From assembly GCA_050173715.1 (NCBI GenBank), contig JBFXKO010000020.1, positions 855-64,854 of the forward strand: a DNA stretch of 64,000 nt, written 5' to 3'. The notes beneath the pieces were generated by a model. It was not told the DNA's origin. It made no database searches and worked only from the letters and a program-made list of their open reading frames with translations. Source of the stretch: Sedimentibacter sp. (lineage in GTDB: Bacteria > Bacillota > Clostridia > Tissierellales > Sedimentibacteraceae). Both the position numbers and the translations under genes were made by a program. Below are positions 4,423 through 27,375 of the stretch, piece after piece (the first letter of the stretch is position 1; each line of letters opens with the position of its first letter).

Positions 4423-5184
4423 GTGGGTTACATGTTTACATCCATTTATATTGTAGCATTTATTGCAGGATTAGTTTCTTTCCTGTCACCTTGTATAATA
4501 CCGATGATTACCGTGTATTTCAGTCTAATCACAGGCATGTCCGCAAAGGAACTTAAAGAGACCGGTAAAAGTAAAGCTATAAGGTTGAAGATAATAATAA
4601 ATACGCTTTTATTTATCTTGGCATTTACTATTGTTTTTACACTTGCTGGTGCTGCATCAGGAAAGGCTGCAAGTTTTATTAAAGAGAATATTGGTGTATT
4701 CAATGTTATTGGCGGTATTTTTGTTATTTTTCTCTCATTAAAACTTTTGGGCTTTTTTAAAACTGTTTCTTTCAGTATAAAAGCCCTGGATAATCTGTTT
4801 GACAGGTTTAAAGAGAGAGCTTCTACCAGATACCTTACCACTTTTTTAGTTGGAATATTCTTTGCCGTTGCTTGTTCACATTGTATTGGACCCTTATTAT
4901 ATTCAATGTTGATTTTTGCAGGAAGCATGGGTTCCTCCTATACTGGTATGGCAGTAATGTTCATGTTTTCAATAGGGCTAGGAGTGCCATATCTGTTGGT
5001 AGGGATAGCCTTTGGAAAGTCAATGGGTATATTGAAGAGAATTCAGAAATATCATACAGTGATATCATATGTGACAGGTGTAATTCTTCTTATTTTTGGG
5101 ATATTGTTGTTATTTAACAAATTCACATTAATGGTTGAACTACTATATAAATTCATTCCTTTCAGTTTACCTATAGGAATGTAG
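4423..5184 (+). CDS. ccdA: Cytochrome c biogenesis / disulfide-reducing membrane protein CcdA (DsbD transmembrane domain)
   Basis: FLSPCIIP and ACSHCIGP Cys motifs in a roughly 6-TM protein; likely ATG at 4432. Confidence 0.88.
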   Translation: MGYMFTSIYIVAFIAGLVSFLSPCIIPMITVYFSLITGMSAKELKETGKSKAIRLKIIINTLLFILAFTIVFTLAGAASGKAASFIKENIGVFNVIGGIFVIFLSLKLLGFFKTVSFSIKALDNLFDRFKERASTRYLTTFLVGIFFAVACSHCIGPLLYSMLIFAGSMGSSYTGMAVMFMFSIGLGVPYLLVGIAFGKSMGILKRIQKYHTVISYVTGVILLIFGILLLFNKFTLMVELLYKFIPFSLPIGM

Positions 5185-5470: not shown

Positions 5471-5486
5471 ACATATATAAAAGAAA

Positions 5487-5501
5487 CACCCCCCGGGGGT
5501 A
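5487..5501. promoter_or_regulatory. CsoR operator
   Basis: CACCCCCCGGGGGTA immediately upstream of csoR. Confidence 0.8.
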
Positions 5502-5522
5502 TGGTTAATGGAGTGGATTCTG

Positions 5523-5789
5523 ATGAACAAAGAGAAAGAAAATGCTGTTACTTCTTTAAAGACAGCAAAAGGGCAAATTGAAGGAATTATTAAAATGTTA
5601 GAGGATGATAGATATTGTGTTGATATATCAAATCAAATAATTGCAGCACAATCACTGTTAAAAAAGGCTAATATTTTAATTTTAAGGCAACACATTCATC
5701 ATTGTGTAAAAGAAGCAATAAAAGAAGAAACCGGTGATGAAAAGATAGACGAAATAATAAATATTTTAGAAAAAATAATACAAAAATAA
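5523..5789 (+). CDS. csoR: Copper-sensing repressor CsoR
   Basis: GQIEGIIKMLEDDRYCVDI and HIHHCV (C-H-C ligands); heads the copA operon. Confidence 0.92.
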   Translation: MNKEKENAVTSLKTAKGQIEGIIKMLEDDRYCVDISNQIIAAQSLLKKANILILRQHIHHCVKEAIKEETGDEKIDEIINILEKIIQK

Positions 5790-5804
5790 AAAGGAGTGGT
5801 TTTA

Positions 5805-5951
5805 ATGTTTAAATTTATTAAAAATTGGCTAGACAGATTAGCTAAAGAGAATCAAAAAACTTTTGGAACAGGTAGAATGGATTGCTGTGATTTAAATAAA
5901 CCAAAAAACACAAATACACAAGCTGCTACCAGTAATACAAATAAGAAATGA
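5805..5951 (+). CDS. LDCC-motif putative metal-binding small protein (48 aa); not in ORF track
   Basis: AAGGAG RBS. MFKFIKNWLDRLAKENQKTFGTGRMDCCDLNKPKNTNTQAATSNTNKK. Lies between csoR and copA, and its stop overlaps the copA RBS. Confidence 0.85.
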   Translation: MFKFIKNWLDRLAKENQKTFGTGRMDCCDLNKPKNTNTQAATSNTNKK

Positions 5952-5961
5952 GGTGTAATGA

Positions 5962-8418
5962 TTGGAAAAGAGTCTTAAAATAGAAGGAATGACCTGTGCA
6001 TCCTGCGCTAAGACAGTTGAAAAAGCTACTAAGAAAGTACAGGGTGTAACAGATGCAAATGTAAACTTTGCAACTGAAAAGTTAAATGTAACCTTTGATG
6101 ATTCAAAGGTTACTGTAAAGGATATACAAGCTGCTGTAGAAAAAGCAGGATACAAAGCTTTATCTGAAGCTGTAACAAAAACAATGAAAATACAGGGAAT
6201 GACATGTGCATCCTGTGCTGCAAATATAGAAAAAGCTACAAGAAAGCTTAATGGGGTAACTGAATCAAATGTAAATTTTGCTACAGAAAAGTTAACCATA
6301 AGTTATGAACCAACATTAGTGAAAGTTTCAGAAATAAAGAATGCAATTGAAAAAGCAGGGTATAAAGCAGTCGAAGAGGAAACTTCAGTAGATGCTGACA
6401 AGGAAAGAAAAGAAAAAGAGATAAAATCTTTATGGGGAAGATTTGTAATATCAGCAATTTTTACGACACCTCTGTTATACATGGCAATGGGTCATATGTT
6501 TGGAGAAATGCTTGGAATAAAATTACCTGAAGTTATAGATCCAATGATGAATCCATGGAACTTTGCAATAGTACAGTTGATTTTAGTTACACCACCTATG
6601 ATTGTAGGTTACAAATATTTTACCGTAGGTTTTAAATCGTTGTTTAGAGGAAGTCCAAATATGGATTCACTTATAGCAATAGGTACAGCTGCAGCTTTCT
6701 TATACGGAATTTATGCAATTGTACAGATTTATAACGGCAATGGTGATTATGCTAATGAATTGTATTTTGAAGCAGGAGGAGTAATATTAACCCTTATTAC
6801 ATTAGGGAAATATTTAGAATCAGTTACAAAAGGAAAAACATCTGAGGCAATAAAGAAATTAATGGGGCTTGCACCTAAGACAGCAATAATTATAAGAGAT
6901 GGCAAGGAAGTTGAAATTTCAATTGAAGATGTTGAAGTTGGAGATGTTATAGTAGTTAAACCTGGAGAAAAAATGCCGGTAGACGGAGAGGTTATAGAAG
7001 GAACAACTTCAGTAGATGAATCAATGCTTACAGGTGAAAGTATTCCAGTAGAAAAAAATATTGGTGACGGCATTATAGGTGCAAGTATAAATAAAAACGG
7101 AACAATAAAATATAAGGCTACAAAAGTCGGTAAGGATACAGCACTGGCACAAATTATAAAATTGGTTGAAGATGCTCAGGGTTCTAAAGCACCTATAGCA
7201 AAATTAGCCGATGTTATTTCAGGATATTTTGTTCCTGTGGTAATAGCTCTTTCAATAATATCAGCATTGGCATGGTACTTCTTAGGAGGGCAATCAACAG
7301 TATTTGCTTTAACAATATTTATATCAGTTCTTGTTATAGCCTGCCCATGCGCATTAGGATTGGCAACTCCGACAGCTATAATGGTTGGAACAGGAAAGGG
7401 AGCTGAAAACGGAGTATTGATTAAAAGCGGTGTTGCGTTAGAAACAACACATAAAATTAAAACAATCGTATTTGATAAAACCGGTACAATAACAGAAGGA
7501 AAACCAAAGGTAACAGATATAATAACTGCAAATGGAATACAAGAAAATGATTTGCTGCAATTAACAGCATCTGCTGAAAAGGGTTCAGAACATCCACTTG
7601 GTGAAGCAATAGTAAAAGGTGCTGAAGAAAAGGGACTAGAATTTAAAAACCTTGATGCATTCAATGCAATACCTGGTCATGGAATTGAAGTTAAAATTGA
7701 CGGCAAAAATATATTGGCAGGCAACAGAAAGCTTATGGTTGAACGCAACATTTCATTGGAAAACTTGGAATCAACATCTAACAAGCTTGCAGAAGAAGGT
7801 AAAACACCTATGTATGTTGCTATAGATAATAAGATAGCAGGTATAATAGCAGTAGCAGATACAGTTAAGGAAAACAGCAAAAGAGCTATTGAAAAATTGC
7901 ATCAAATGGGTATAGAAGTAGCAATGATTACAGGTGACAACAGAAGAACAGCAGAAGCTATAGCAAGACAAGTGGGAATAGACAGAACACTCGCAGAAGT
8001 ATTGCCGCAGGATAAAGCTAATGAAGTTAAGAAGCTTCAATCTGAAGGGAAAAAGGTTGCAATGGTTGGTGACGGTATAAATGATGCTCCTGCCTTGGCT
8101 CAAGCTGATATAGGTATAGCCATAGGTTCAGGAACAGACGTAGCAATGGAATCAGCTGATATAGTATTGATGAGAAGTGATTTGATGGATGTACCGACAG
8201 CCATACAGCTAAGTAAAAGCACAATAAGAAATATAAAACAAAATCTGTTTTGGGCTTTTGGTTATAACACATTAGGTATACCTGTAGCTATGGGAATCCT
8301 GTACCTCTTTGGAGGGCCACTGTTAAATCCAATGTTTGCAGCAGCAGCAATGAGTTTAAGTTCAGTATCAGTATTAGCAAATGCATTAAGATTAAAGAGA
8401 TTTAAGCCGGTTAGATAA
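5962..8418 (+). CDS. copA: Copper-translocating P1B-type ATPase
   Basis: Two GMTCASC HMA domains, TGES, CPC, DKTGT, SEHPL, GDGIND, YN and MxxSS motifs; TTG start. Confidence 0.97.
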
Positions 8419-8470
8419 TTAATAAAATAATTATTTAATATATAAAATACAAAATAATGGAGGATATGAA

Positions 8471-8686
8471 ATGAAAAAGAAAATATTAATTGAAGGAATG
8501 AGCTGTCAACATTGTGTAAATCACGTAACAGAAGCTTTAGGAGAAATTTGCGGAGTAAAATCTGTAAATGTAGATTTAGATAATAAGAACGCTGTAGTTG
8601 AACTGGCACATCCGGTAGACGATGCAAAGTTTAAGGAAGCTGTTGATGAAGCAGGTTATGAAGTTGTTGGAATAGAAGCATTATAA
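8471..8686 (+). CDS. copZ: Copper chaperone CopZ
   Basis: GMSCQHC motif, 71 aa, directly after copA. Confidence 0.92.
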   Translation: MKKKILIEGMSCQHCVNHVTEALGEICGVKSVNVDLDNKNAVVELAHPVDDAKFKEAVDEAGYEVVGIEAL

Positions 8687-8701
8687 TTTATATGTAATTA
8701 T

Positions 8702-8738
8702 AAAATGGCTTTGATAGTTAACTGTTGAAGCCATTTTT
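8702..8738 (+). terminator. Rho-independent terminator of the cop operon
   Basis: AAAATGGCTT...AAGCCATTTT stem followed by a T-tract. Confidence 0.7.
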
Positions 8739-8899
8739 TATGGAATTTTTTACTATAGTTTTAAAGATAATAACACAAATGTGGTTATTAAATTTGTTAA
8801 AAGGGTATATTAAATTATAATTATTTTTCTGAATAATAAGAAATTAAAGTTGTTAAGTTTTAATGATTTTACAGCTAACAGAAGTATAGGAGGAAACTT

Positions 8900-9169
8900 A
8901 TGAAATTAATTGACAATATATTTAGAAAAAAAGATGATACTATTATGTATACTTCAGATACTTGAGATGATTGTAAGGAAGCAAAAAGTTTTTTTGCAGA
9001 AAATCAAATAGAAGTTATATATAAAAATGTAGCAGATAAACAGAATAGGAATGAGCTTATGAAAAAATATGATCGTATGGTTGTCCCAACAATTATAATA
9101 GGAAATAAGATTCTTTTAGGATTTGCAGATAATAGAGATGAAATTATAAAACTTTTAAAACTAAGTTAA
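8900..9169 (+). CDS. Glutaredoxin/NrdH-like selenoprotein (UxxC), 89 aa; not in ORF track
   Basis: AGGAGG RBS, ATG 8900, in-frame TGA at 8963-8965 in YTSDT-U-DD-C-KEAKSFF. The frame continues through VVPTIIIGNKILLGF (Grx cis-Pro motif) to TAA at 9167-9169. Confidence 0.85.
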
Positions 9170-9266: not shown

Positions 9267-9602
9267 ATGAATTGTCATGGAAATAACGATGGAAATAATA
9301 AAGAAAATTATAACGAAAATAAAGGGATGCACAATCATAGTCCGATAAAGCATATGCTTCATATGATTCTTTGCTGCGGATTGCCAATATTAATTTTTGC
9401 TGCACTACCGTTTATATCAAAGGTTAGTCCGGGAGCCAGCAGGATATTATTAGTGATTGCTCCATTTATATGTCCGTTAATGATGATAGGAATGATACCA
9501 ATGATGTTAGGCGGTGGAAAGAATAATAAAAAATCAAGCTACTGTGAAAACAAAGAAAGTATCTCCAAAGCACAACTTGAGTTAAATGAACCAACAGAAT
9601 AA
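9267..9602 (+). CDS. Small His/Cys/Met-rich two-TM membrane protein (DUF2933-like)
   Basis: HNHSPIKHMLHMILCCGLP and ICPLMMIGMIPMM motifs; GGAGG RBS. Confidence 0.75.
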   Translation: MNCHGNNDGNNKENYNENKGMHNHSPIKHMLHMILCCGLPILIFAALPFISKVSPGASRILLVIAPFICPLMMIGMIPMMLGGGKNNKKSSYCENKESISKAQLELNEPTE

Positions 9603-9687
9603 GTTGAATTTTGCAAAAAATGATAGCAATTTTATTATTGTTGCGACTATGGCGTGATGAGTAAAAAATTAACTAACATTTAATAAA

Positions 9688-9717
9688 AGATTAATGCCAA
9701 ACGGCATTAATTTTTGT
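9688..9717 (+). terminator. Rho-independent terminator
   Basis: ATTAATGCC-AAAC-GGCATTAAT followed by Ts. Confidence 0.7.
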
Positions 9718-9745: not shown

Positions 9746-12700
9746 ATGAAAAAATTTTTTAATAACAGATATAATGTTTTGTTTTTAATATTCGCTTTGC
9801 TTTTGATAATTTTAGGATATAGAATGGCTGTATTGACAATCGTTGAAGGGGCTAGCTACAGAGAAATTGCAGATGTTAAGAAAATTAAAGATATACCTGT
9901 CAAGGCTCCAAGAGGAAAAATATATGACAGAAACGGAGTTGTCTTAGCAGACAATGTACCAAGCTTCACGGTACAAATGTTTACTGACCAAATAAATGAA
10001 GAAGATTTTAATCAAATATCATATACTTTGTCTAAAATATTAGATATAAATGCGGAAAATTCTATAGATGAATTTCCTATACTTTTAGATTTATTAGAAT
10101 TTAAACAAAATATAAAGTTGGACAAGACAGCCAATGAAGAAGTTATTGATTCTGTAAAAGACAATATAAATGATTGGTTCAATTATGAAACGATAATTTA
10201 CGGTGAAAGGTTCAGTCCTAAAGAACTGGTATTAAAAACGATAAAAAAGGATATAAAAGATTTAAATATTGAACTTAAAGACGGACAATTTGTTTTTGCT
10301 GATGAGGATGAAGAACAGGAGGTATCAGGATTAACAGATGAAAGAAATAAGTTAAAAAATCAAAATCCTAAAGATATTATTATCGAGAAGCTATTGAACG
10401 AAAACAAATTCATACTGGAGCTTTTTTCTAATTCAAAAATCAGAAAATTTTCTTTTGAATTTTTAAAATCCATAGACCTTGCAGGCAATATCGAATTAGT
10501 TGAGTATTCATTCTCATATGATAATGAATTTAAAAACATAAAGAGGAATTTATCTCTGGCAAATGAAGAAATTACTGATGCAACAAATGCAAAGGATGAT
10601 TTTGTTGTCCTTACATTAAAAAATTCAATTGATAATTTATTGCTTGCTAATTATGAATCTAAAAATGAGAAAATAATACCTGGTAAAATACTTATTGAAA
10701 GATTAAAAGAAATTTATCCTGATTTTCCTGTTGAATATTATGAAAATGGACAAACAGTCTTATTTGAATTTACAGATGAAAAAACAAAGATGAAATATCT
10801 GAATCAATATAATTTTGACATTGAAATAAATGCATTAGATTTTATAAAAGAAATGGCAGCAAAAAATTATAATATTTTATATGACTTTATTACAAACGAC
10901 GAAATAAAATATTATGCCCAAGCAGAACTTTTAAAATATATAAATCCGCATATTTCAATAGATAATTGGGAATACACACCCATCAAAAACAAAAAAATAT
11001 GGATAAGCAAAAATATTGATTCAGAAGAAAATAACACTATCTATGCTGCAGAAGAATCATTTAATGCGTTAAGAGAGAAGTTGAAAGTAGATTTTAATAT
11101 TAACGACTATGACTTCCGAAACATGTTAGTTATTAGAGAAAGGTATAACAAAACAAGTTATCTTTCATATCATCCCGTAGATATAGCCTATGGAATTTCT
11201 GAAAAATCTGTCGCTATGATTTCAGAAAGATCACATGAATTAAATGGAATAAATGTTGAAATCGAACCGCTCCGAAGTTATCCTGAAAAAGAATCCGCAG
11301 CGCACATTTTAGGATATCTAGGCAAGATTTCACAGGAGAATGAAATAAAAGAATACATTGATGAGAATGGTTACAGCCCTGAAGACATCATAGGAAAAAC
11401 AGGAGTTGAAGAAAAGTTTGAACACTATTTAAGAGGAGAAAAAGGAAAGAAAACTGTTGAAGTTAATAATTTTGGAGAAACAATAAAGTCAGTTTCAAGT
11501 CAGGCGCCGGTACCAGGCGATGATTTGTATCTTACAATAGATATTAACTTACAAAAGAAGGCTGAGGAATCACTAAAAAAAGGTTTGGAACAGATACAAA
11601 ATGGCGGAGTCTTTGAAAGTGAATGGGGTAATTTCAATTTTGGAGACAGCTATGAAGATGCAACATCAGGCTCATTGGTTGCATTGGATGTAAAAACAGG
11701 AGAAGTTTTAGCAATGGCAAATTATCCATCATATGATTTAAACATGTTTTCAACGGGTATTTCTGCCGAAGATTGGAACAACCTCCAAAATGAATCAAGA
11801 AATCCTCTTGCTCCAAAATCTTTGTACAATATTGCAATGCTTACTTCTATTCAACCAGGCTCTACTTTTAAAATGGTAACAGCATTAGCAGCGCTTGAGA
11901 AAGGTGTTGACCCGCTTACTGAAATATATTGTCCAGGAACTATTAAAGTAGGAGATAGAAACTTTAACTGCTGGTCATATACTCTCTTTGGCTATGGACA
12001 TGGGTGGCAAAATATGTATGAAGCTATACAAAATTCATGCAATATATATTTTTTTGTAACTGTATTAGGAGTAAATCCGGCTACTGACCAAAAACACACA
12101 GTTCAAGTTGATGTAGATGATATAATTGAAACAGCTAAGATGTTAGGCTTAGATAGCAAAACAGGAATTGAAATAGATATTCCACAGGAATCTTCAGGAG
12201 GAGTTCCAAGTATAGATGGTAAAAAATCAAGTATAAGAGTGTATTTAAGAATATTTTTGGAAGGTAATTTGGAAAAATATTTATATAATGGTTCTAATTT
12301 AGGTGAAGACATGAAAAATGAAATAATAGAAGAAATAGTAAGCTGGATTGACAGAGAAGAACCATTGACCAGGGGAGAAGTATACGAAAACTTAAAATTG
12401 CTGGGAGTAAATCCGGATATAACAAATAACAATAATGTACCTTTGGTTGATATTATTAAATATTCTTTCATAAACCAGGCACACTGGACGGCTGGGGACA
12501 ATTTAAATATTGCTATCGGTCAGGGTTCTAATTCCTACACAGCTCTTCAAATGTCTAATTATGCTTCTATAATTGCTAATGGTGGCTACAAAAGAAATGT
12601 TAGTGTTATAAAAGAAATTAAAACATTTGATGGACAAAAAACGGATTATATTCCATTACGAGAATCTGAAAGAATTGAGCTTTCTGATTACAATCATTTG

Positions 12701-13003
12701 GAAATATTAAAGGAAGGCATGAGAAGAGTTTCATCGGAAGACAGTGGAAGACCATATGCTAATTTTCCGGTTGAAGTTGGAAGCAAGACAGGTACAGCAC
12801 AAAAGGAAGGGATAAATCCTGAAACAGGTGAACCTTATGATGAATTTGCCTGGTATGTTGCATTTGCTCCTTATGATGATCCTCAAATAGCAGTAGCAAT
12901 AGTTTTATTTCAAGGTGGTTCAGGAAGATATCCTACCCCTATTGCCAGAGAGGTAATTGGCGAATATTTGAAGATAAAAGGCATTGTTCAAACGAATAAT
13001 TAA
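9746..13003 (+). CDS. Large class B penicillin-binding protein (PBP2/MrdA-like transpeptidase with insertions)
   Basis: N-terminal TM helix, APRGKIYDRNG, SxxK (GSTFK), SxN (SCN) and KTG motifs; 1085 aa. Confidence 0.92.
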   Translation: MKKFFNNRYNVLFLIFALLLIILGYRMAVLTIVEGASYREIADVKKIKDIPVKAPRGKIYDRNGVVLADNVPSFTVQMFTDQINEEDFNQISYTLSKILDINAENSIDEFPILLDLLEFKQNIKLDKTANEEVIDSVKDNINDWFNYETIIYGERFSPKELVLKTIKKDIKDLNIELKDGQFVFADEDEEQEVSGLTDERNKLKNQNPKDIIIEKLLNENKFILELFSNSKIRKFSFEFLKSIDLAGNIELVEYSFSYDNEFKNIKRNLSLANEEITDATNAKDDFVVLTLKNSIDNLLLANYESKNEKIIPGKILIERLKEIYPDFPVEYYENGQTVLFEFTDEKTKMKYLNQYNFDIEINALDFIKEMAAKNYNILYDFITNDEIKYYAQAELLKYINPHISIDNWEYTPIKNKKIWISKNIDSEENNTIYAAEESFNALREKLKVDFNINDYDFRNMLVIRERYNKTSYLSYHPVDIAYGISEKSVAMISERSHELNGINVEIEPLRSYPEKESAAHILGYLGKISQENEIKEYIDENGYSPEDIIGKTGVEEKFEHYLRGEKGKKTVEVNNFGETIKSVSSQAPVPGDDLYLTIDINLQKKAEESLKKGLEQIQNGGVFESEWGNFNFGDSYEDATSGSLVALDVKTGEVLAMANYPSYDLNMFSTGISAEDWNNLQNESRNPLAPKSLYNIAMLTSIQPGSTFKMVTALAALEKGVDPLTEIYCPGTIKVGDRNFNCWSYTLFGYGHGWQNMYEAIQNSCNIYFFVTVLGVNPATDQKHTVQVDVDDIIETAKMLGLDSKTGIEIDIPQESSGGVPSIDGKKSSIRVYLRIFLEGNLEKYLYNGSNLGEDMKNEIIEEIVSWIDREEPLTRGEVYENLKLLGVNPDITNNNNVPLVDIIKYSFINQAHWTAGDNLNIAIGQGSNSYTALQMSNYASIIANGGYKRNVSVIKEIKTFDGQKTDYIPLRESERIELSDYNHLEILKEGMRRVSSEDSGRPYANFPVEVGSKTGTAQKEGINPETGEPYDEFAWYVAFAPYDDPQIAVAIVLFQGGSGRYPTPIAREVIGEYLKIKGIVQTNN

Positions 13004-13010
13004 TTTTATA

Positions 13011-13053
13011 TAAAAACGCCTATGTAATTTTTAAAATCACATAGGCGTTTTTT
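13011..13053. terminator. Bidirectional terminator between convergent genes
   Basis: AAAAACGCCTATGT...ACATAGGCGTTTTT. Confidence 0.8.
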
Positions 13054-14401
13054 ATTGTATTGTTATTGTACTGCTTATCATACCCATCCAGCATGTGTAA
13101 GTTATAGTTCCGGCTTGTGTTGGAGTAAATTCAATTGTATTTTCTCCAAGTTCAAGTTTTTGCTGAATTCCATATTGGGGTATTATAATTTCATTGTTGC
13201 AACCGTTCAATGTGCCTTTATCAGCTATTATTGTCCATTTCAAAGGGGCTCCGGCATATACGGTAATTGGCTGGTATTTGCCTGGCTCAAGTTTTGTTGT
13301 TACTGTCTGGTTGCCGTCATTAATAACAGCATTTACAGACTTTCCACTTTGGTTTAAATCTATTCCCAGAGGAGATAAAATGGCATTTGCTATATTAATT
13401 CCTGCCAATGAAAAACCTCTGTTTCCCATGATAATACCTAATATGATAACTAACATAGCACTTATTTTCATCATTTGTTTAGTAAACTTAGAACTCAGTA
13501 TTGAACTGAAAGCGCCAAAAGCAAACATCATAGGCACAGTTCCTATGCTAAAAATTAACATTGATAATGCGCCTGTAAAAAAGCTTCCTGTTCCAAGAGC
13601 ATAAAGCTGCATTGCCTGTAATGGACCACAAGGCATAAATCCATTAAGCAAACCTACAATAAATGGTCCATTATTATTTTTCTTATTGTCAATTTTATTA
13701 GTTAAACTTTTAGGAAGACGTGGCATTATTTTTCTCAATTTAGCGGATAAGCCTAACATGTTAATACCCATGATGATCATGAATAACCCTGCTATAAATG
13801 AAATCAATGCTTTACCTTTCAGTGAAATACTAAAAATTGAACCAAGAGCACCAACCAATCCTCCTAAAATTGTGTAAGATGTCACTCTCCCAAGGTTATA
13901 TAAAAAACTTGGTTTAAGCTTACTGTATATATTGTTTTCACATCCGTTGCATCCCGAACATTGAGATAAATTTATTCCGCCGCACATAGCTATACAGTGA
14001 ACTGATGTAAAAAGTCCTGCTACGAAAAGCATGCCATAACCCATACTCTGTGTTATTTGCGGGAAAAAGTTAAAACCAACAGTATTATTAATGATTACAT
14101 ACAGACCGACGATAATGAGACCAATTAACAAAGTAGTGGTGATAGATGATTCTTCTTCTATATTATCATCATCGAGTATAACATCATAACCTTTTTTCTT
14201 GATAGTTTCGTAAATAATGTTTATATCAATTTCTTCTGGTATATATGTTATTTCTGCTGTAGATGAAGCATAGCTTACATTTATCTTTAAAACTCCATCC
14301 AATTTGTTTATTGCTTTCTCAATCTTATTTTCACAAGCTGTGCAGGTAACCCCATCTAATTTAATAATTTTTTGTTCAGTTAACTTCTGCATTTTTACCA
14401 A
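13052..14401 (-). CDS. HMA + DsbD_2/TauE-like membrane domain + cupredoxin-like domain protein
   Basis: GVTCTAC HMA motif, TSVHCIAMCGG, FMPCGPLQ, C-terminal LNGCNN...YTCWMGM; likely ATG at 14392. Confidence 0.85.
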   Translation of the reverse strand: MVKMQKLTEQKIIKLDGVTCTACENKIEKAINKLDGVLKINVSYASSTAEITYIPEEIDINIIYETIKKKGYDVILDDDNIEEESSITTTLLIGLIIVGLYVIINNTVGFNFFPQITQSMGYGMLFVAGLFTSVHCIAMCGGINLSQCSGCNGCENNIYSKLKPSFLYNLGRVTSYTILGGLVGALGSIFSISLKGKALISFIAGLFMIIMGINMLGLSAKLRKIMPRLPKSLTNKIDNKKNNNGPFIVGLLNGFMPCGPLQAMQLYALGTGSFFTGALSMLIFSIGTVPMMFAFGAFSSILSSKFTKQMMKISAMLVIILGIIMGNRGFSLAGINIANAILSPLGIDLNQSGKSVNAVINDGNQTVTTKLEPGKYQPITVYAGAPLKWTIIADKGTLNGCNNEIIIPQYGIQQKLELGENTIEFTPTQAGTITYTCWMGMISSTITIQ

Positions 14402-14944
14402 CTAGTTTTTCCAATTTGCAAATATACCTTCAGCTTCAACAAGTAAATCCTTAGGAATTGTAATTGTTGAGTCAGTTTCTGTTTTCATTTCTTTAAATAT
14501 TGGAACAGGGTTACATCCGCCTCTTGCTACTTCAACTTCATCCATTTTAAATCTGTTCCCACAGTTTTGACATACCAACACATCACCTTCCTGTACGTAA
14601 TATCCTCTTCCTGAAGAATAACATACTTGACAAGTATTAAATGCTGTTCTTACTGTTCCATCTGATGCCTTGACAGCTAAAATTTCCATGTATGTGTCAA
14701 GTTCATCATAAGCATAGAATGTGGCAGTATCGGTTACATCAGCCTTAGGAATAACCATATCTCCTTTTTCGTCAGTTACTGATGTTGCTGTTGGCTTTGG
14801 TTGCTCTGTTAAGTTTTCATCTTCATTTTTAGAATTTAAAAAAGTAAATGCTGCTATGCCTATTACTATAACTGCTACAACTCCAAGAATTACATTAGAG
14901 TTTTTCTTTGATGATTTACCTTTGCCTTTTTTACTATTCTTCAT
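14402..14944 (-). CDS. DUF2318 family Cys-rich (putative Fe-S/metal-binding) membrane-anchored protein
   Basis: TM anchor; TCQVC, VCQNCGNRF and GGCNPVP motifs. Confidence 0.85.
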   Translation of the reverse strand: MKNSKKGKGKSSKKNSNVILGVVAVIVIGIAAFTFLNSKNEDENLTEQPKPTATSVTDEKGDMVIPKADVTDTATFYAYDELDTYMEILAVKASDGTVRTAFNTCQVCYSSGRGYYVQEGDVLVCQNCGNRFKMDEVEVARGGCNPVPIFKEMKTETDSTITIPKDLLVEAEGIFANWKN

Positions 14945-21907: not shown

Positions 21908-21985
21908 AATTGTCACCGTAGTGATTGTAAAAAATTACCATTTGATTTTTGATAATAATTGTATATAATAATAAAAATTAATATA

Positions 21986-22262
21986 CAGCGATGATGGGAA
22001 GAGTAATTTGAAACTTAAGTCACAGAGAGATAGCGTTGGTGAGAGTCTATTATAACAGTTTTAAATGAAGAACATCCCTGAGCTTTTGACCCAAATTGCA
22101 ATTTACAAATGCAAAAGTAGGCTCAAACGCATCCGAGCGTTACAGCGGCAAAGACATGATAGTGTCTTTCGAGTGAGCCTGTACGTAAGTGCATGTTAAT
22201 TAGGGTGGTACCGCGAATGAATATAACTCCTTCGTCCCTTTCCAGGGATGGAGGAGTTTTTG
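21986..22262 (+). ncRNA. T-box riboswitch, probable Asn (AAC) specifier
   Basis: AGTA (GAGTA) in stem I, AGAGA/GGTGAGA apical motifs, GAAG-AAC-ATCCC specifier (AAC 22071-22073), T-box AATTAGGGTGGTACCGCG (22198-22215), terminator 22225-22262. Confidence 0.9.
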
Positions 22263-22388
22263 TATGCCCTAACCCCATTTTTCAGAGTGTTTTTTCTGAA
22301 AAATGGCGGTAGGTCAACCGCAACGAATTCCCAATTTTTGCGACGGTAGGAGCAGAAATTAAAAAAATTATTGGAAGGAAAGAAGATT

Positions 22389-24137
22389 ATGCAAAGAGTA
22401 AATGAGTACCGAACCCACACATGTGGGGAAATAAGAGAAAGTGATATCGGCAAGACAGTGAGAGTTGCTGGATGGTTTGAAAATGTGAGAGACCATGGAG
22501 GAGTTAAATTTATTAACTTAAGAGACCACTATGGCGTTGTGCAGGTGGTAGTTGAGGATGAATCGCAAGTAGCAGGAATAACCAAGGAAAGCACTGTTTC
22601 AGTGTTAGGTAAAGTCATCATGAGAGATGAAGATACAATCAACGAAAAATTAGAAACAGGAACTGTTGAGGTAGAAGCTGAAACCATAATAGTTCTTGGA
22701 AAAACAAAAGCTCCTCTTCCTTTTGAAATAACAACATCAAAGGAAACCAAGGAGGATTTAAGATTAAAATACAGATACTTGGATTTAAGAAACAAGGAAG
22801 TTCACAAAAACATTGTTTTTCGCTCACAGGTTATTTCGCATTTAAGAAACAAGATGACAGAGCTTGGGTTTTTGGAAATTCAAACTCCAATATTGACTGC
22901 ATCATCACCGGAGGGTGCAAGAGATTACATCATACCCAGCAGGAAGTATCACGGTAAATTTTATGCATTACCTCAAGCTCCGCAGATGTTTAAGCAGCTA
23001 TTGATGGTTTCCGGCTTTGATAAGTATTTTCAAGTTGCCCCTTGCTTCAGAGATGAAGATGCAAGAGCAGATCGTTCTCCCGGAGAATTTTATCAGCTTG
23101 ATTTTGAAATGGCTTTTGCAACTCAGGAGGATGTGTTGAATGTTGCAGAGGAAGTACTGTATGATGTATTTACTAAGTTTTCGGAAAAGCAAGTTTCAAA
23201 GCCTCCATTTGTCAGAATTCCATACAGTGAAGCTATGCTTAAGTATGGAACTGACAAGCCGGATTTAAGAAACCCTCTTGAAATAATTGACATAAGCCAT
23301 ATGTTTATTGAAACAGATTTTATCCCATTCAGGAAAAAGACGGTAAGAGCCATCAATGTTCCTGACTGTGCAGCACAGTCAAAGAGCTTTTTTGAAAAAA
23401 TGCTTGAATTTGCTATGAAAATAGGTATGAAGGGCTTAGGATATCTGAAGGTTGATGATAAAATGAAATACCAGGGACCTATTGACAAGTTTCTTTCTGA
23501 CAAAGATAAAGAAGAACTTAAAGAAGTAGCAGGTTTAAAACCAGGGTGTGTATTATTCTTCATAGCAGATGACAAGGAATATGCACCTAAGCTTGCAGGC
23601 CAAATTAGAACAGAGCTGGCCAAAAGATTAGGTCTTATTGATGAAAACAAATTTGAAATGTGCTTCATAGTGGATTTTCCTATGTATGAAATAGATGAAA
23701 ACACAGGAAACATAATCTTTACCCACAACCCCTTTTCAATGCCTCAGGGAGGACTGGAAGCATTAATAAACAAGGACCCTCTTGACATTTTAGCTTTTCA
23801 GTACGATATTGTATGTAACGGAGTTGAGCTTTCCTCAGGTGCTGTAAGAAACCACGATACGGACATAATGCTTAAGGCCTTTGAAATAGCAGGTTATACA
23901 GAAAAAGATTTACAAACTAAATTTACTGCATTGTACAATGCATTTAAATACGGTGCTCCTCCTCATGCAGGTATGGCACCGGGAATAGACAGAATTGTAA
24001 TGCTGTTGACAGGTGAAGAAAATATACGAGAAGTAATTGCTTTTCCAATGAACAGCAACGCTCAGGATTTAATGACAAATGCTCCCTGTGAGGTTACAGA
24101 AGAGCAAATAAGAGAAGTTCATATTAAAATCAGATAG
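22389..24137 (+). CDS. aspS: Aspartate--tRNA(Asp/Asn) ligase (non-discriminating)
   Basis: YRTHTCGE, LPQAPQMFKQ, FRDED, GAPPHAG motifs; co-located with gatCAB. Confidence 0.96.
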   Translation: MQRVNEYRTHTCGEIRESDIGKTVRVAGWFENVRDHGGVKFINLRDHYGVVQVVVEDESQVAGITKESTVSVLGKVIMRDEDTINEKLETGTVEVEAETIIVLGKTKAPLPFEITTSKETKEDLRLKYRYLDLRNKEVHKNIVFRSQVISHLRNKMTELGFLEIQTPILTASSPEGARDYIIPSRKYHGKFYALPQAPQMFKQLLMVSGFDKYFQVAPCFRDEDARADRSPGEFYQLDFEMAFATQEDVLNVAEEVLYDVFTKFSEKQVSKPPFVRIPYSEAMLKYGTDKPDLRNPLEIIDISHMFIETDFIPFRKKTVRAINVPDCAAQSKSFFEKMLEFAMKIGMKGLGYLKVDDKMKYQGPIDKFLSDKDKEELKEVAGLKPGCVLFFIADDKEYAPKLAGQIRTELAKRLGLIDENKFEMCFIVDFPMYEIDENTGNIIFTHNPFSMPQGGLEALINKDPLDILAFQYDIVCNGVELSSGAVRNHDTDIMLKAFEIAGYTEKDLQTKFTALYNAFKYGAPPHAGMAPGIDRIVMLLTGEENIREVIAFPMNSNAQDLMTNAPCEVTEEQIREVHIKIR

Positions 24138-24505: not shown

Positions 24506-25960
24506 ATGAGTAAAATTAAATACATTCATAAGCTATTAGAAACAAAACAATTATCTTGTACAGAATTAACATATAAATATTTACAGAGCATTGAAACAGA
24601 AAATAAAAAGCTGAATGCCTATGTTAATGTAACCCACGAGGTGGCCTTAAAGACTGCAAAAGAAGTGGATGAGAGAATTGCACGAAAAGAAAAGCTAAGT
24701 CCTTTAGAAGGCATTCCAATGTCTTTAAAGGACAATATATCAACAAAAAATATTGAAACAACATGCTGTTCAAACATATTGAAGGATTATGTTCCTATTT
24801 ATGATGCAACTGTATGGGAATTATTAAAAAATCAAAATGCAGTGCTGCTTGGAAAAACCAATATGGATGAATTTGCAATGGGCTCATCTTGTGAAACATC
24901 ATGCTTTGGTGGTGCTAAAAATCCTCATGACACAAGTCGCGTGGCTGGAGGAAGTTCAGGAGGAGCTGCTTCATCTGTTGCAGGAAATATTGCTGTTTTT
25001 GGATTGGGTTCAGATACAGGCGGCTCTGTAAGGCAACCTGCAAGCTTTTGCGACCTTGTGGGACTAAAGCCTACCTACGGCACAGTTTCAAGATACGGGC
25101 TCATAGCATATGCTTCAAGTCTTGATCAAATTGGTCCAATTGCATCCTGTGTTGAAGATGCTGCAATCATATATGATTCCATATCGCTTTATGACAGCAA
25201 GGATGCCACTTCTAGAGAGAGCAAAAGCACAGCCGACAAGCTTGATAAAAGCATCAAAGGAATGAAAATAGGCATAGCTGAAGAATTTTTTGATGGAATA
25301 AGAGAAGATATAAAACAATGTATAGATGAAGCTCTTAAGGTTTATGAAGATTTAGGCTGTGAGGTAGTTCATTTAAGCTTTCCTCAAATTAAGCATGCAC
25401 TTCCTGTTTACTATATAATTGCATGTGCTGAAGCATCTTCAAATTTAGGAAGATATGACGGAATACGATATGGATATAAAGCCTCAAATTACAGTGATAT
25501 AAATGATATGATATGCAAAACAAGAAGCCATGGTTTCGGCAAGGAAGTGCAGAGAAGAATTTTGCTTGGAACATATGTGTTAAGTGCAGGATATTTTGAT
25601 GCGTATTATAAGAAAGCACAGAGTCTTCGAGGATCAATTATCAAAGCCTTCAATGAAGCATTTACGCTCTGCGATGTGATGCTTACTCCTACAGTTCCTA
25701 CAACTGCCTTTAAACTTGGTTTTACACAGCATGAACCCATAGAAACCTATTTAACCGACATATGCACAGTTCCTGTAAATATTGCAGGCTTGCCTGCAGT
25801 TTCAATTCCATGCGGATTTGATGATAAAGGTCTTTCCATAGGAATGCAGCTAATAGGAAACACTTTTGATGATGCAGTTATACTGAATGCTGCTTATCAA
25901 TATGAACAACAAACAAAGGATAAAATATATAAACATGTAGAATCGGGGGTGATGCTATGA
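24506..25960 (+). CDS. gatA: Asp/Glu-tRNA amidotransferase subunit A
   Basis: Amidase signature GGSSGG, GSDTGGSVRQPA. Confidence 0.96.
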   Translation: MSKIKYIHKLLETKQLSCTELTYKYLQSIETENKKLNAYVNVTHEVALKTAKEVDERIARKEKLSPLEGIPMSLKDNISTKNIETTCCSNILKDYVPIYDATVWELLKNQNAVLLGKTNMDEFAMGSSCETSCFGGAKNPHDTSRVAGGSSGGAASSVAGNIAVFGLGSDTGGSVRQPASFCDLVGLKPTYGTVSRYGLIAYASSLDQIGPIASCVEDAAIIYDSISLYDSKDATSRESKSTADKLDKSIKGMKIGIAEEFFDGIREDIKQCIDEALKVYEDLGCEVVHLSFPQIKHALPVYYIIACAEASSNLGRYDGIRYGYKASNYSDINDMICKTRSHGFGKEVQRRILLGTYVLSAGYFDAYYKKAQSLRGSIIKAFNEAFTLCDVMLTPTVPTTAFKLGFTQHEPIETYLTDICTVPVNIAGLPAVSIPCGFDDKGLSIGMQLIGNTFDDAVILNAAYQYEQQTKDKIYKHVESGVML

Positions 25961-27375
25961 TATGGGAAATGGTAGCAGGATTTGAAACTCACATAGAGCT
26001 TTCAACAAAGACGAAAATATTCTGCCAATGTACAACAGAGTTTGGAGGAGAGCCAAACACACATTGCTGCCCTATCTGCATAGGACTTCCAGGCACTCTT
26101 CCCAAATTGAACGAGAAAGTTATAGAATATGCCGTAAAAGCAGGGCTTGCCACAAACTGCAAAATACGTAATATATCTAAGATGGATCGCAAGAATTACG
26201 TGTATCCTGACCTTCCAAAGGCATATCAAATATCACAATACGATAAGCCCCTTTGCGAGCATGGATTTATAACATTGTCTTCGGGTAAGAAAATAAATAT
26301 TACCCGTATTCACATAGAGGAAGATGCAGGAAAGCTCATTCATGAAAGAAAAGACACCTACATTGACTATAACAGAGGCGGAGTGCCGCTGATAGAAATA
26401 GTTTCAGAGCCTGATATAAGAAGCATTGATGAAGCAGTGGAGTATGTTGAAAAGCTAAGGCTTATAATGAAATATATAGGTGTATCAGATGTTAAAATGC
26501 AGGAAGGCTCATTGAGGTGCGATGTTAACATTTCATTGAGGAAAAAGGGAGAGGAAACTTTCGGTACCAGGACTGAAATAAAAAATATGAACTCTTTAAA
26601 CTTTATTGCAAAGGCAATGGAATATGAATTTAACAGGCAGATTGATATACTTGAAAGCGGAGGAGAAATAGAACAGGAAACAAGAAGGTACAACTCAGAT
26701 TTGAATATTACCGAAAGCATGAGGGGAAAGGAAGATGCTGATGATTATAGATATTTCAGAGAACCGGATTTGGTGACTATTGCTATTTCTGATGAAGAAA
26801 TAAAAAAATACAAGGACGCCCTTCCCGAGCTTTCTGGAGAAAAGTTTAATCGTTTTGTCAATGAATATGGATTGTCTGAATATGATGCAAGACAATTAAT
26901 AAAATATAAAAAAATAGCCGAGTATTTTGAGGAAGCTTCTAAAAATACAGAAAATAAAAAGATAACAGCAAACTATATATTGGGAAGCATTTTTCGAAGA
27001 ATTTCAACAGATACAGAAAAGGAAGAATGCAATATTCCAATTCCACCTCAATATTTAAATGAACTAGTGAAATTGACAGAAAATAAAAAAATAAATTCTC
27101 AAATGGCAAGAAATGCACTTGAACAAATGCTTGACACAGGAAAATCAGTCAATGAATTTATAACTGAAAATGATATGGAAAAAATTGATGATGTAATATT
27201 AAGAAAAATTTGTGAAAATGCAGTAAGTGCAAATGAAAATGCAGCATCTCAATATAAGGCAGGTAAAGAAAAGGCCTTAGGAGCAATTATTGGCTATATA
27301 ATGAAGGAAACAAAGGGCAAAGCAGATGCAGCTTTAGCAACAGAGATAGTAAAAGAATTGATAGAAATAGATTAA
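25957..27375 (+). CDS. gatB: Asp/Glu-tRNA amidotransferase subunit B
   Basis: DRKNYVYPDLPKAYQISQ, HIEEDAGK, DYRYFREPD motifs. Confidence 0.96.
   Translation: MIWEMVAGFETHIELSTKTKIFCQCTTEFGGEPNTHCCPICIGLPGTLPKLNEKVIEYAVKAGLATNCKIRNISKMDRKNYVYPDLPKAYQISQYDKPLCEHGFITLSSGKKINITRIHIEEDAGKLIHERKDTYIDYNRGGVPLIEIVSEPDIRSIDEAVEYVEKLRLIMKYIGVSDVKMQEGSLRCDVNISLRKKGEETFGTRTEIKNMNSLNFIAKAMEYEFNRQIDILESGGEIEQETRRYNSDLNITESMRGKEDADDYRYFREPDLVTIAISDEEIKKYKDALPELSGEKFNRFVNEYGLSEYDARQLIKYKKIAEYFEEASKNTENKKITANYILGSIFRRISTDTEKEECNIPIPPQYLNELVKLTENKKINSQMARNALEQMLDTGKSVNEFITENDMEKIDDVILRKICENAVSANENAASQYKAGKEKALGAIIGYIMKETKGKADAALATEIVKELIEID

Follow-up and report, generated by a model that had tools for sequence, protein, structure and literature searches.

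Glutaredoxin-like proteins with selenocysteine (Sec, U) in place of the N-terminal cysteine of the CxxC active site are an established kind of selenoprotein. Listings of Sec-glutaredoxins of the family PF00462, with a UxxC motif, go back to 2006 and name Geobacter sulfurreducens, Alkaliphilus metalliredigens and Moorella thermoacetica (PMC1794560); a Sec-glutaredoxin is counted as experimentally verified in a review (PMC13188914), which refers at this point to Kim et al. 2011 (Mol Microbiol 79:1194). Here we describe a further candidate from Sedimentibacter sp., encoded at positions 8900-9169 (forward strand) of a stretch of 64,000 nucleotides of contig JBFXKO010000020.1 (hereafter, the window), next to the copper efflux genes copA and copZ. 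Since such proteins have already been listed and verified, the kind is known and the gene in the window is a new, unannotated member of it. With the listed proteins it shares the small thioredoxin fold, Sec at the position of the first Cys, the occurrence in anaerobes, the existence of Cys homologues and the truncated gene calls; it differs from them in the U-x-D-C motif with a conserved Asp, in GF..N standing for GG, in an N-terminal extension and in the linkage to copA. The explanation we favour, with a probability of roughly 0.7, is that of a Sec-decoded redoxin which would service the copper sites of CopZ and CopA.

The gene is preceded by a Shine-Dalgarno sequence, AGGAGG (8888-8893, forward strand), which was read directly and lies 6 nt 5' of the ATG at 8900. 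Its conceptual product of 89 residues is MKLIDNIFRKKDDTIMYTSDT*DDCKEAKSFFAENQIEVIYKNVADKQNRNELMKKYDRMVVPTIIIGNKILLGFADNRDEIIKLLKLS, where the asterisk denotes the single internal stop, a TGA at 8963-8965 (codon 22); the C-terminus reads ...LKLS and is followed by the terminal stop TAA (9167-9169), a second TGA being absent. If the internal UGA is read as Sec, the active site becomes T-U-D-D-C, with Sec22 and, encoded by TGT at 8972-8974, the resolving Cys25, as placed by translation and family alignment. With Cys set at codon 22, the product matched Pfam Glutaredoxin PF00462 with 40.7 bits (gathering threshold 22.9), and its residues 13-88 aligned to the solved glutaredoxin PDB 7c10 chain A (E 3e-11) so that the TGA fell opposite the first Cys of CPHC. 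The two proteins have in common the beta1-CxxC-alpha1 layout, the cis-Pro region and an 'ELMKK' segment, whereas 7c10 has Cys as the first residue of its CPHC site and bears from its depositor only the name 'Glutaredoxin'; we know of no copper context for it. Across the family alignment Pro63, the cis-Pro of the VPT motif, is invariant, and Asp24, just before Cys25, is kept in almost every relative (alignment A1, unbiased search).

A preliminary description of the window, made from its letters, had proposed at this place a hidden glutaredoxin-like UxxC selenoprotein with a strong ribosome-binding site, a lone in-frame stop exactly at the first Cys of CxxC, an intact downstream fold with the VPT cis-Pro motif and a bacterial Sec insertion sequence (SECIS), and had supposed that callers of open reading frames (ORFs) miss such genes. 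Direct reading and translation placed the ribosome-binding site, the peptide and the TGA correctly to the base; the position of the stop agrees with the 7c10 alignment and with the Cys homologues, and the downstream fold is indeed intact according to the Pfam score, the 7c10 alignment and the invariant Pro63. As to gene calling, on contig L049 of the Logan assemblies, which derives from SRR27751817, only the final 36 codons of the gene were recorded (P0092). This contig is 100% identical to the window over 10.5 kb, the TGA included, and, although it is a separate assembly, it may come from the same reads. A sequencing error as the source of the TGA was considered and rejected. The central claim of a selenoprotein gene is supported by the conservation of the TGA, by selection on both of its sides and by a hairpin specific to the TGA forms, and we consider it very probable that 8900-9169 is a genuine Sec-decoded gene.

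Relatives were collected by exhaustive searching with HMMER, the query being the 67 residues that follow the TGA. The 44 proteins obtained formed three groups, namely CxxC proteins, proteins with W printed at the critical column, and stubs starting right after this column. A representative of the first group, P0002, shows 61-66% identity, the site CADC and the same N-terminal extension MSLIGNLFGKR; seven Cys homologues in alignment A1 have their Cys opposite the TGA of the window. Among the stubs, P0017, P0020 and P0026 begin in public protein sets just past the TGA. Furthermore, metagenome contigs were scanned with a degenerate DNA pattern in which TGN-x-Asp-Cys, Pro-x-[ILM]-[ILM], Gly-Phe and Asn were fixed and the hairpin region was left free, which yielded 39 loci, of which 20 were intact TGA forms, 9 were Cys forms and 10 were chance matches. 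Altogether, 24 other loci keep TGA at codon 22 and 10 related loci have TGY (Cys), which answers the call for a homologue comparison at this codon made beforehand. In a rough neighbour-joining tree the Sec and Cys forms interleave at least three times.

Several other searches were uninformative. A word-indexed protein search with the U-to-C version of the redoxin gave no match, a scan of a genome collection returned only an irrelevant Lentisphaerae fragment, and an exact look-up of the CopZ of the window found no record. In a plasmid collection, tblastn retrieved ordinary Cys glutaredoxins only, and an unannotated match in Acetoanaerobium turned out to be a normal CSYC protein.

The nearest relative, present in loci L039/L045 (MKFINNIIKRKGSIIMYTSDT*DDCKEAKSYF...), also has the TGA. 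Between the window and L039 synonymous divergence (dS) amounts to 0.63, and over the whole gene the ratio of nonsynonymous to synonymous divergence (dN/dS) comes to 0.18, with 0.39 in the 21 codons that precede the TGA and 0.13 in those that follow. Purifying selection thus acts on both sides of the TGA, and its retention at such a distance rules out a recent nonsense mutation. These numbers bear on the reading as a pseudogene, in which a Cys codon has recently mutated to TGA and only a 21-residue peptide is made. A single base change would suffice to turn TGY into TGA, the window shows no Sec machinery, its hairpin is weak, and one relative, L013, is truly decaying, with an extra stop codon. 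Against this stand the frame of L039, intact on both sides of a TGA that is common to it and 23 further loci, and the conserved GUU hairpin specific to the TGA forms. The situation named in advance as fatal to a selenoprotein, with close homologues all carrying TGC or TGT and an elevated dN/dS, was not encountered, and we regard the pseudogene as highly improbable.

It should be mentioned that in L013 (minus strand, TGA at reverse-complement position 5660) an extra in-frame TAG stands where relatives have CAG (Gln), and copA is absent within 5 kb; this is probably a decaying copy. A further relative was set aside. P0001, encoded at 65-310 of L009, was the top match by identity (73% over the C-terminal part) and has TTA (Leu) at the Sec position. 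It has two extra codons after the Cys and lacks the beta1 strand and the N-terminus, on a contig of 1.4x coverage, so that we see in it either a paralogue that has degenerated or an artefact of assembly. Because it is decayed, has Leu in place of Sec and is without beta1, it is uninformative on recoding.

A second way to deny Sec would be to read the UGA otherwise, with an alternative genetic code giving Trp or Gly, or near-cognate suppression giving Cys or Trp after the loss of a Sec system. Four homologues were indeed translated with W by public gene callers (P0005, P0009, P0010 and P0028; loci L005, L002, L004 and L006-L008), and the underlying DNA is TGA in all of them. In the window, TGA is an ordinary stop elsewhere: it ends 8 of the 50 ORFs, among them well-aligned housekeeping genes such as the full-length gatA with its near end-to-end NCBIfam match, there are 104 TGG codons, and the sole in-frame TGA of all 50 ORFs is codon 22 of the redoxin gene. 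Because TGA terminates ORFs in the window and occurs in frame only here, the W in the gene calls of the homologues is to be seen as an artefact of translation with code 4, applied to AT-rich metagenome contigs. Moreover, Trp at the attacking position of a CxxC site would be non-functional, and the conserved hairpin downstream has the features of a SelB site. Decoding of this UGA as anything other than Sec therefore appears very unlikely. No further selenoprotein genes, sought as long ORFs split by one TGA, were seen in the window outside frames that overlap known genes.

According to the rules compiled for bacterial SECIS elements (PMC13188914), the apical loop has 3-9 nt, the upper stem 4-16 bp and the gap between UGA and loop 16-37 nt; a G stands at the first or second position of the loop, in most cases with G or U after it, and the free energy is -7.5 kcal/mol or lower. 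In the window, a SECIS-like hairpin is located at 8981-8997 (forward strand). Its 7-bp stem is formed by 8981-8987 with 8991-8997 and closes a GUU apical loop at 8988-8990; the base of the hairpin lies 15 nt and the start of the loop 22 nt past the UGA, and the loop G8988 is 23 nt after the A of the UGA. In its 3-nt loop, 7-bp stem, 22-nt gap and the G then U opening the loop it agrees with the published consensus, from which it differs in being very small and AU-rich, with -5.2 against the threshold of -7.5 kcal/mol. It had been drawn earlier as GCAAAA-AGTTT-TTTTGC at 8981-8997, with a loop G 23 nt after the UGA, and judged to fit a bacterial SECIS position. These positions were exact, and loop, stem and spacing comply with the rules; the structure itself is better drawn as 7 bp closing a GUU triloop. 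An outer GATT/AATC stem proposed at the same time can indeed pair in the window but lacks comparative support, because base pairs 8-10, past the seventh, are not kept by the relatives.

Every TGA form has a hairpin of 6-7 bp with GUU in the loop, beginning 18-19 nt after the U of the UGA. The sequence is GCAAAAA-GUU-UUUUUGC in the window and L006, GCAAAGA-GUU-UCUUUGC in the group with the AKSFFA peptide, CGAAAAG-GUU-CUUUUCG, in a register shifted by 1 nt, in the AKRFFS group, and GCCAAGG-AGUU-CCUUGGC in L015; L039 has 6 bp and a 5-nt loop (GCAAAA-AGUUA-UUUUGC). The AKSFFA and AKRFFS groups thereby keep the same hairpin despite the 1-nt shift of register, by way of amino-acid changes. As MAFFT aligned these two groups in the codon register and not in the structural one, the pair table of the whole family was computed by script. 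In 18 distinct TGA-form segments centred on GUU, 94% of the 7-bp stem cells were paired, compared with 47-75% when the 3' partner was slid by 1-2 positions. Pairs 1, 2, 6 and 7 showed changes on both sides; pair 2, which comprises the third positions of Lys and Phe codons, switches between A-U (AAA/TTT) and G-C (AAG/TTC).

The GUU loop with a near-complete stem in fixed register was found in 19 of the 20 distinct TGA forms, the twentieth being L015 with its AGUU loop, against 1 of the 9 Cys forms (Fisher p ~2e-5, a value that ignores phylogeny and therefore belongs with the reservations given below). By these comparisons the GUU-loop hairpin appears essentially specific to the TGA forms. In the closest Cys forms, L003 (6064-6110) and L025 (12994-13040), the stem is kept and the loop G is lost (GCAAAAA-AAU-UUUUUGC and AAAGA-GAU-UCUUU, respectively), and these stems look like fossil SECIS elements left after conversion of Sec to Cys. 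A covariance model built from 11 other loci only placed its top match, on both strands of the 64-kb window, at 8978-9000 (35.3 bits, E ~2e-6; next match 18.1 bits), a score that owes part to homology of the coding sequence.

Several observations weigh against the hairpin as a SECIS and, through it, against our interpretation. The coding sequence for Ala-Lys/Glu-x-Phe-Phe is itself partly self-complementary, and the Cys forms show 4-7 of the 7 pairs there. Within the AKSFFA group alone, to which the covariation count by the tool was limited, covariation is modest: both partners had changed in one pair, and the score was reached by 30 of 500 shuffles. The hairpin of the window is weak, with -3.2 kcal/mol alone and -5.2 with the lower stem against the threshold of -7.5 of the search model, and the local minimum free energy (MFE) fold of the window (-11.4) is another structure, which is not conserved and in which the GUU is buried. 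The MFE folds of most relatives, at -8 to -17 kcal/mol, contain the conserved hairpin. A search of Rfam at a permissive threshold gave only chance-level matches to snoRNA and sRNA, and no family there fits the hairpin.

Also to be counted on the negative side, none of selA, selB, selC (tRNA-Sec) and selD was found within the 64-kb window. No tRNA-Sec was detected in 18 related loci either. A hint in the other direction is a gene for SelB at a distance of 4.4 kb from the TGA homologue of L005, a locus from another organism. By its AspRS, which shows 80-90% identity to Sedimentibacter proteins, the host is a Sedimentibacter-like member of the Tissierellia; in the searchable literature nothing was found on Sec use in Sedimentibacter. 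The capacity of the host to decode Sec is inferred from the conservation of UGA and hairpin in the lineage.

Classical glutathione-dependent glutaredoxins have a CPYC-type active site and a GG-x-x-D glutathione-binding motif. The redoxin of the window has T-U-D-D-C and L-G-F-A-D-N at these places, and its family carries GF..N where the classical proteins have the GG motif; an N-terminal extension, M-x-L-I-x-N-[IL]-F, is common to its clade. Comparison with NCBIfam models gave 60.3 bits for YruB (TIGR02196, cut-off 88.55), 35 for Grx3/GRX_bact (TIGR02181, cut-off 90), 23 for NrdH (TIGR02194, cut-off 85.75), 35 for Uxx-star (66) and 27 for UXX-star family 1 (72), the latter two under NF041212/NF041114. 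Seven other family members scored 39-72 bits against TIGR02196, below its 88.55, and none of the eight members tested, the redoxin of the window included, reached any NCBIfam cut-off. Hence, of the earlier label 'glutaredoxin-like UxxC', the assignment to the Sec-glutaredoxin kind stands, and membership of the Uxx-star, YruB or NrdH families in NCBIfam does not.

YruB and NrdH remain the best NCBIfam similarities, as likewise non-classical glutaredoxin-like proteins of about 75-80 residues from Firmicutes; unlike NrdH, the redoxin lacks the WSGFRP motif, no nrd genes are among the neighbours scanned, and the scores are well below the cut-offs. The UXX-star proteins (NF041212, NF041114, NF041211, NF047338), which have been discussed in the context of metals (PMC13188914), are similar in being distantly glutaredoxin-like selenoproteins truncated in databases, but the redoxin has no Sec near the C-terminus, and it shows UxxC where family 1 is listed with UxxT. 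By these sequence comparisons it is a glutaredoxin by fold only and belongs to a distinct [Sec/Cys]-x-Asp-Cys subfamily, which we define here. Some relatives are without one or both of the active-site residues (CPDS, AVDC and SADF).

Mammalian Grx1 accelerates redox equilibration at the CxxC site of the copper chaperone Atox1 and may modulate the copper ATPases ATP7A/B (PMC5039574). In a review of bacterial copper homeostasis (PMC7558416), glutaredoxin comes up solely where the work on mammalian Grx1 is cited. Synteny of the subfamily was assessed by tblastn of the neighbours in the window against the related loci, counting CopA-type ATPases within 3.5 kb. Such an ATPase was found in at least 12 of the 24 Sec loci and in 7 of the 10 Cys loci; for Sec loci whose flanks extend for 2.5 kb or more in either direction the count was 7 of 11. 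The copA-linked redoxin loci range in GC content from 0.28 to 0.53, and the order of genes varies: the redoxin gene lies 5' of copA on the same strand in sediment-type operons, is divergent from copZ-copA in L004, follows ccdA and precedes csoR and copA in L025 (a Cys form), and is downstream of copZ in the window. We regard the conserved linkage of this subfamily, in its Sec and Cys forms alike, to genes for predicted CopA-type pumps as a new finding.

The sediment-type operons (L012, L020, L030, L031, L033, L037 and L048, from ~1.5 kb upstream of the TGA to 4 kb downstream) have a common layout. It opens with a Grx-like paralogue of the monothiol kind (CPDS), whose N-terminus is long and basic; next come a small ferredoxin of the 4Fe-4S type, a membrane protein with a SHOCT domain and the Sec-redoxin (UVDC), then sometimes a Met-rich secreted protein, and finally CopA, which bears a YHS/TRASH-like CGM...C..C motif at its N-terminus. 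The presence of the ferredoxin hints at a possible source of electrons.

In the window, the copper operon occupies 5486-8686 on the forward strand. It starts with a CsoR box (5486-5502), followed by csoR (5508-5789), a gene for an LDCC mini metal-binding protein (5796-5951), copA (5962-8418), whose N-terminal domains contain GMTCASC twice, and copZ (8471-8686) with the copper site GMSCQHC; upstream, at 4423-5184 and likewise on the forward strand, lies a gene for a CcdA/DsbD-type membrane thiol-electron transporter. The redoxin gene had been described as standing right after copA-copZ. The adjacency is correct, since copZ ends at 8686, but two elements intervene: a terminator-like hairpin with a T-run (8702-8737; -19.2 kcal/mol, z -4.34, with 0 of 200 shuffles as stable), and a promoter-like site, TTGTTA-16-TATAAT (8794-8821; a match to consensus only, 10 of 12), about 79 nt 5' of the start codon. 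The redoxin gene thus probably has its own promoter, and read-through from copZ into it is conceivable. No terminator was found between 9170 and 9266, and another terminator-like hairpin with a T-run follows at 9686-9715; the likely transcription unit therefore consists of the redoxin gene and orf111 (9267-9602, forward strand), an ORF for a Cys/His/Met-rich small membrane protein of 111 amino acids, which is probably co-transcribed.

Three points speak against a role in copper handling, which we rate as about an even chance. The terminator-like hairpin at 8702-8737 separates the redoxin gene from copZ, no sequence resembling a CsoR box was found in 8687-8899, and four well-flanked Sec loci (L005, L013, L022 and L046) have no copA nearby. 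Neither a transcription unit shared with the cop genes nor a CsoR operator could thus be assigned to the redoxin gene. These points form the basis of the main rival explanation, a genuine Sec-redoxin whose role is independent of copper, either as an NrdH/YruB-like disulfide reductase (for instance, for methionine sulfoxide reductase or peroxiredoxins) or as a cytoplasmic electron donor for CcdA/DsbD-type transporters, by which the products of 4423-5184 and 13052-14401 (minus strand) are meant. Besides the separate promoter-like site and the loci without copA, it can draw on the best NCBIfam similarity, which is to the YruB- and NrdH-type redoxins, on the position of ccdA beside a family member in the window and in L025, and on the one experimentally studied Sec-Grx which, as cited in the review, reduces a selenoprotein MsrA (PMC13188914, reference 85). 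The recurrent linkage to CopA-type genes, in many lineages and several gene orders, is hard to explain without a functional tie, and no msr, nrd or peroxiredoxin genes are seen beside the redoxin gene in the window. We consider a copper-independent role unlikely, albeit the strongest of the competing explanations.

The same synteny with CopA would equally suit a selenoprotein of the cop system that is not a reductase of protein disulfides, but binds or buffers Cu(I) at a selenolate-thiolate site or reduces Cu(II). The acidic residue within [U/C]-x-D-C, kept in almost every relative, is unusual for disulfide reductases, and in some metal-resistance selenoproteins Sec may serve as a metal ligand (PMC13188914). 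The fold and the geometry of UxxC and cis-Pro are, however, those of an oxidoreductase, and the relatives with CPDS, AVDC and SADF fit neither role cleanly. Direct binding or reduction of copper is in our estimate somewhat less likely still than the copper-independent role.

For the favoured explanation, a Sec-decoded redoxin servicing CopZ and CopA, the following course of events is conceivable. Translation would start at AUG 8900 and, at UGA 8963, SelB carrying Sec-tRNA(Sec) would be recruited by the hairpin at 8981-8997, so that Sec is inserted instead of termination, as the comparative sequence evidence suggests. By analogy with the UxxC/CxxC chemistry of thioredoxin folds, the selenolate would attack a disulfide or metal-thiolate of the partner, Cys25 would resolve the mixed Se-S bond, and some reductase would recycle the redoxin. 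As the subfamily adjoins CopA-type Cu(I) P-type ATPases in many lineages, its most likely job would be the servicing of copper sites: a cytoplasmic redoxin would keep the CxxC sites of CopZ and of the two N-terminal domains of CopA reduced and competent for copper under copper stress or, as a variant, would itself hand over or reduce copper. A role in keeping copper-binding thiols reduced beside the cop operon and ccdA had already been suggested in the preliminary description; the synteny with CopA-type ATPases argues in its favour, and it is still to be taken as a proposal.

Such a redoxin may be the bacterial counterpart of the relationship between Grx1 and Atox1/ATP7A/B. Common to both is a glutaredoxin fold tied to a copper chaperone with an HMA domain and to a P1B-type copper ATPase; the mammalian system differs in being eukaryotic, glutathione-dependent and Cys-based, and the bacterial link is proposed from gene neighbourhood only. 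Somewhat more tentatively, the [Sec/Cys]-x-Asp-Cys mini-redoxins could be a widespread, undescribed accessory of CopA/CopZ efflux in anaerobes, in which the selenolate would re-reduce copper-oxidised CxxC sites of CopZ and CopA or would bind and pass on Cu(I).

Some further features of the window should be recorded. The product of orf111 is rich in His and Asn at its N-terminus, contains a CC pair, has predicted membrane segments rich in Met, and matched no Pfam or NCBIfam family. Its homologues adjoin the Sec-redoxin gene in L039/L045 and lie just upstream of copA in L038, and it may be a further membrane protein for metal handling whose gene is co-transcribed with the redoxin gene. CsoR-type boxes of good quality occur at two places of the window only, the operator at 5486-5502 and a GC palindrome at 685-701 (ATACCCCGCGGGGGTGC), which has 3 mismatches to that operator and is situated upstream of genes for BcrAD/BadFG-type activases (974-2169); it could mark a further CsoR target unrelated to efflux. 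A second module of metal and thiol-redox proteins is encoded at 13052-14944 (minus strand), about 4 kb from the cop operon, and comprises a 449-amino-acid fusion of an HMA domain, a DsbD_2 membrane domain and a weak cupredoxin-like C-terminus, then an FtrD-like membrane iron-sulfur protein of 180 amino acids, with ~80% identity in L045. Between the redoxin unit and this module, a PBP2-type transpeptidase of 1085 amino acids is encoded at 9746-13003 (forward strand); its NCBIfam PBP2 match starts at residue 438, leaving ~430 N-terminal residues unexplained, and beside the redoxin locus in L045 this gene is represented by its last 75 residues only. Farther downstream, a T-box leader (21982-22242, forward strand; 122.8 bits) precedes aspS (22371-24137), with gatA and gatB next (24506-27375), which looks like T-box regulation of aspS together with the tRNA amidotransferase genes.

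The finding matters for annotation and may matter for physiology. Standard gene calling shrinks the redoxin gene to a 36-residue fragment, and in public protein sets the relatives of its product carry a wrong Trp or are stubs that lack the N-terminus; the remedy would be a family model in which Sec is accepted as the first residue of the active site. What goes beyond the textbook Sec-glutaredoxin is the UxDC subfamily, the tiny putative SECIS with its GUU triloop, the repeated switching between Sec and Cys and the linkage to copper pumps. With only 7 bp and GUU, and with natural Sec-to-Cys conversions that seem to have left 'fossil' stems, this very small element offers material for the study of minimal SelB recognition and of Sec/Cys turnover. 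The presence of Sec and Cys forms beside CopA-type pumps in very different lineages suggests that a redoxin dedicated to copper efflux may exist in many anaerobes, often ones without glutathione. If true, this would be a direct link between the use of selenium and resistance to copper.

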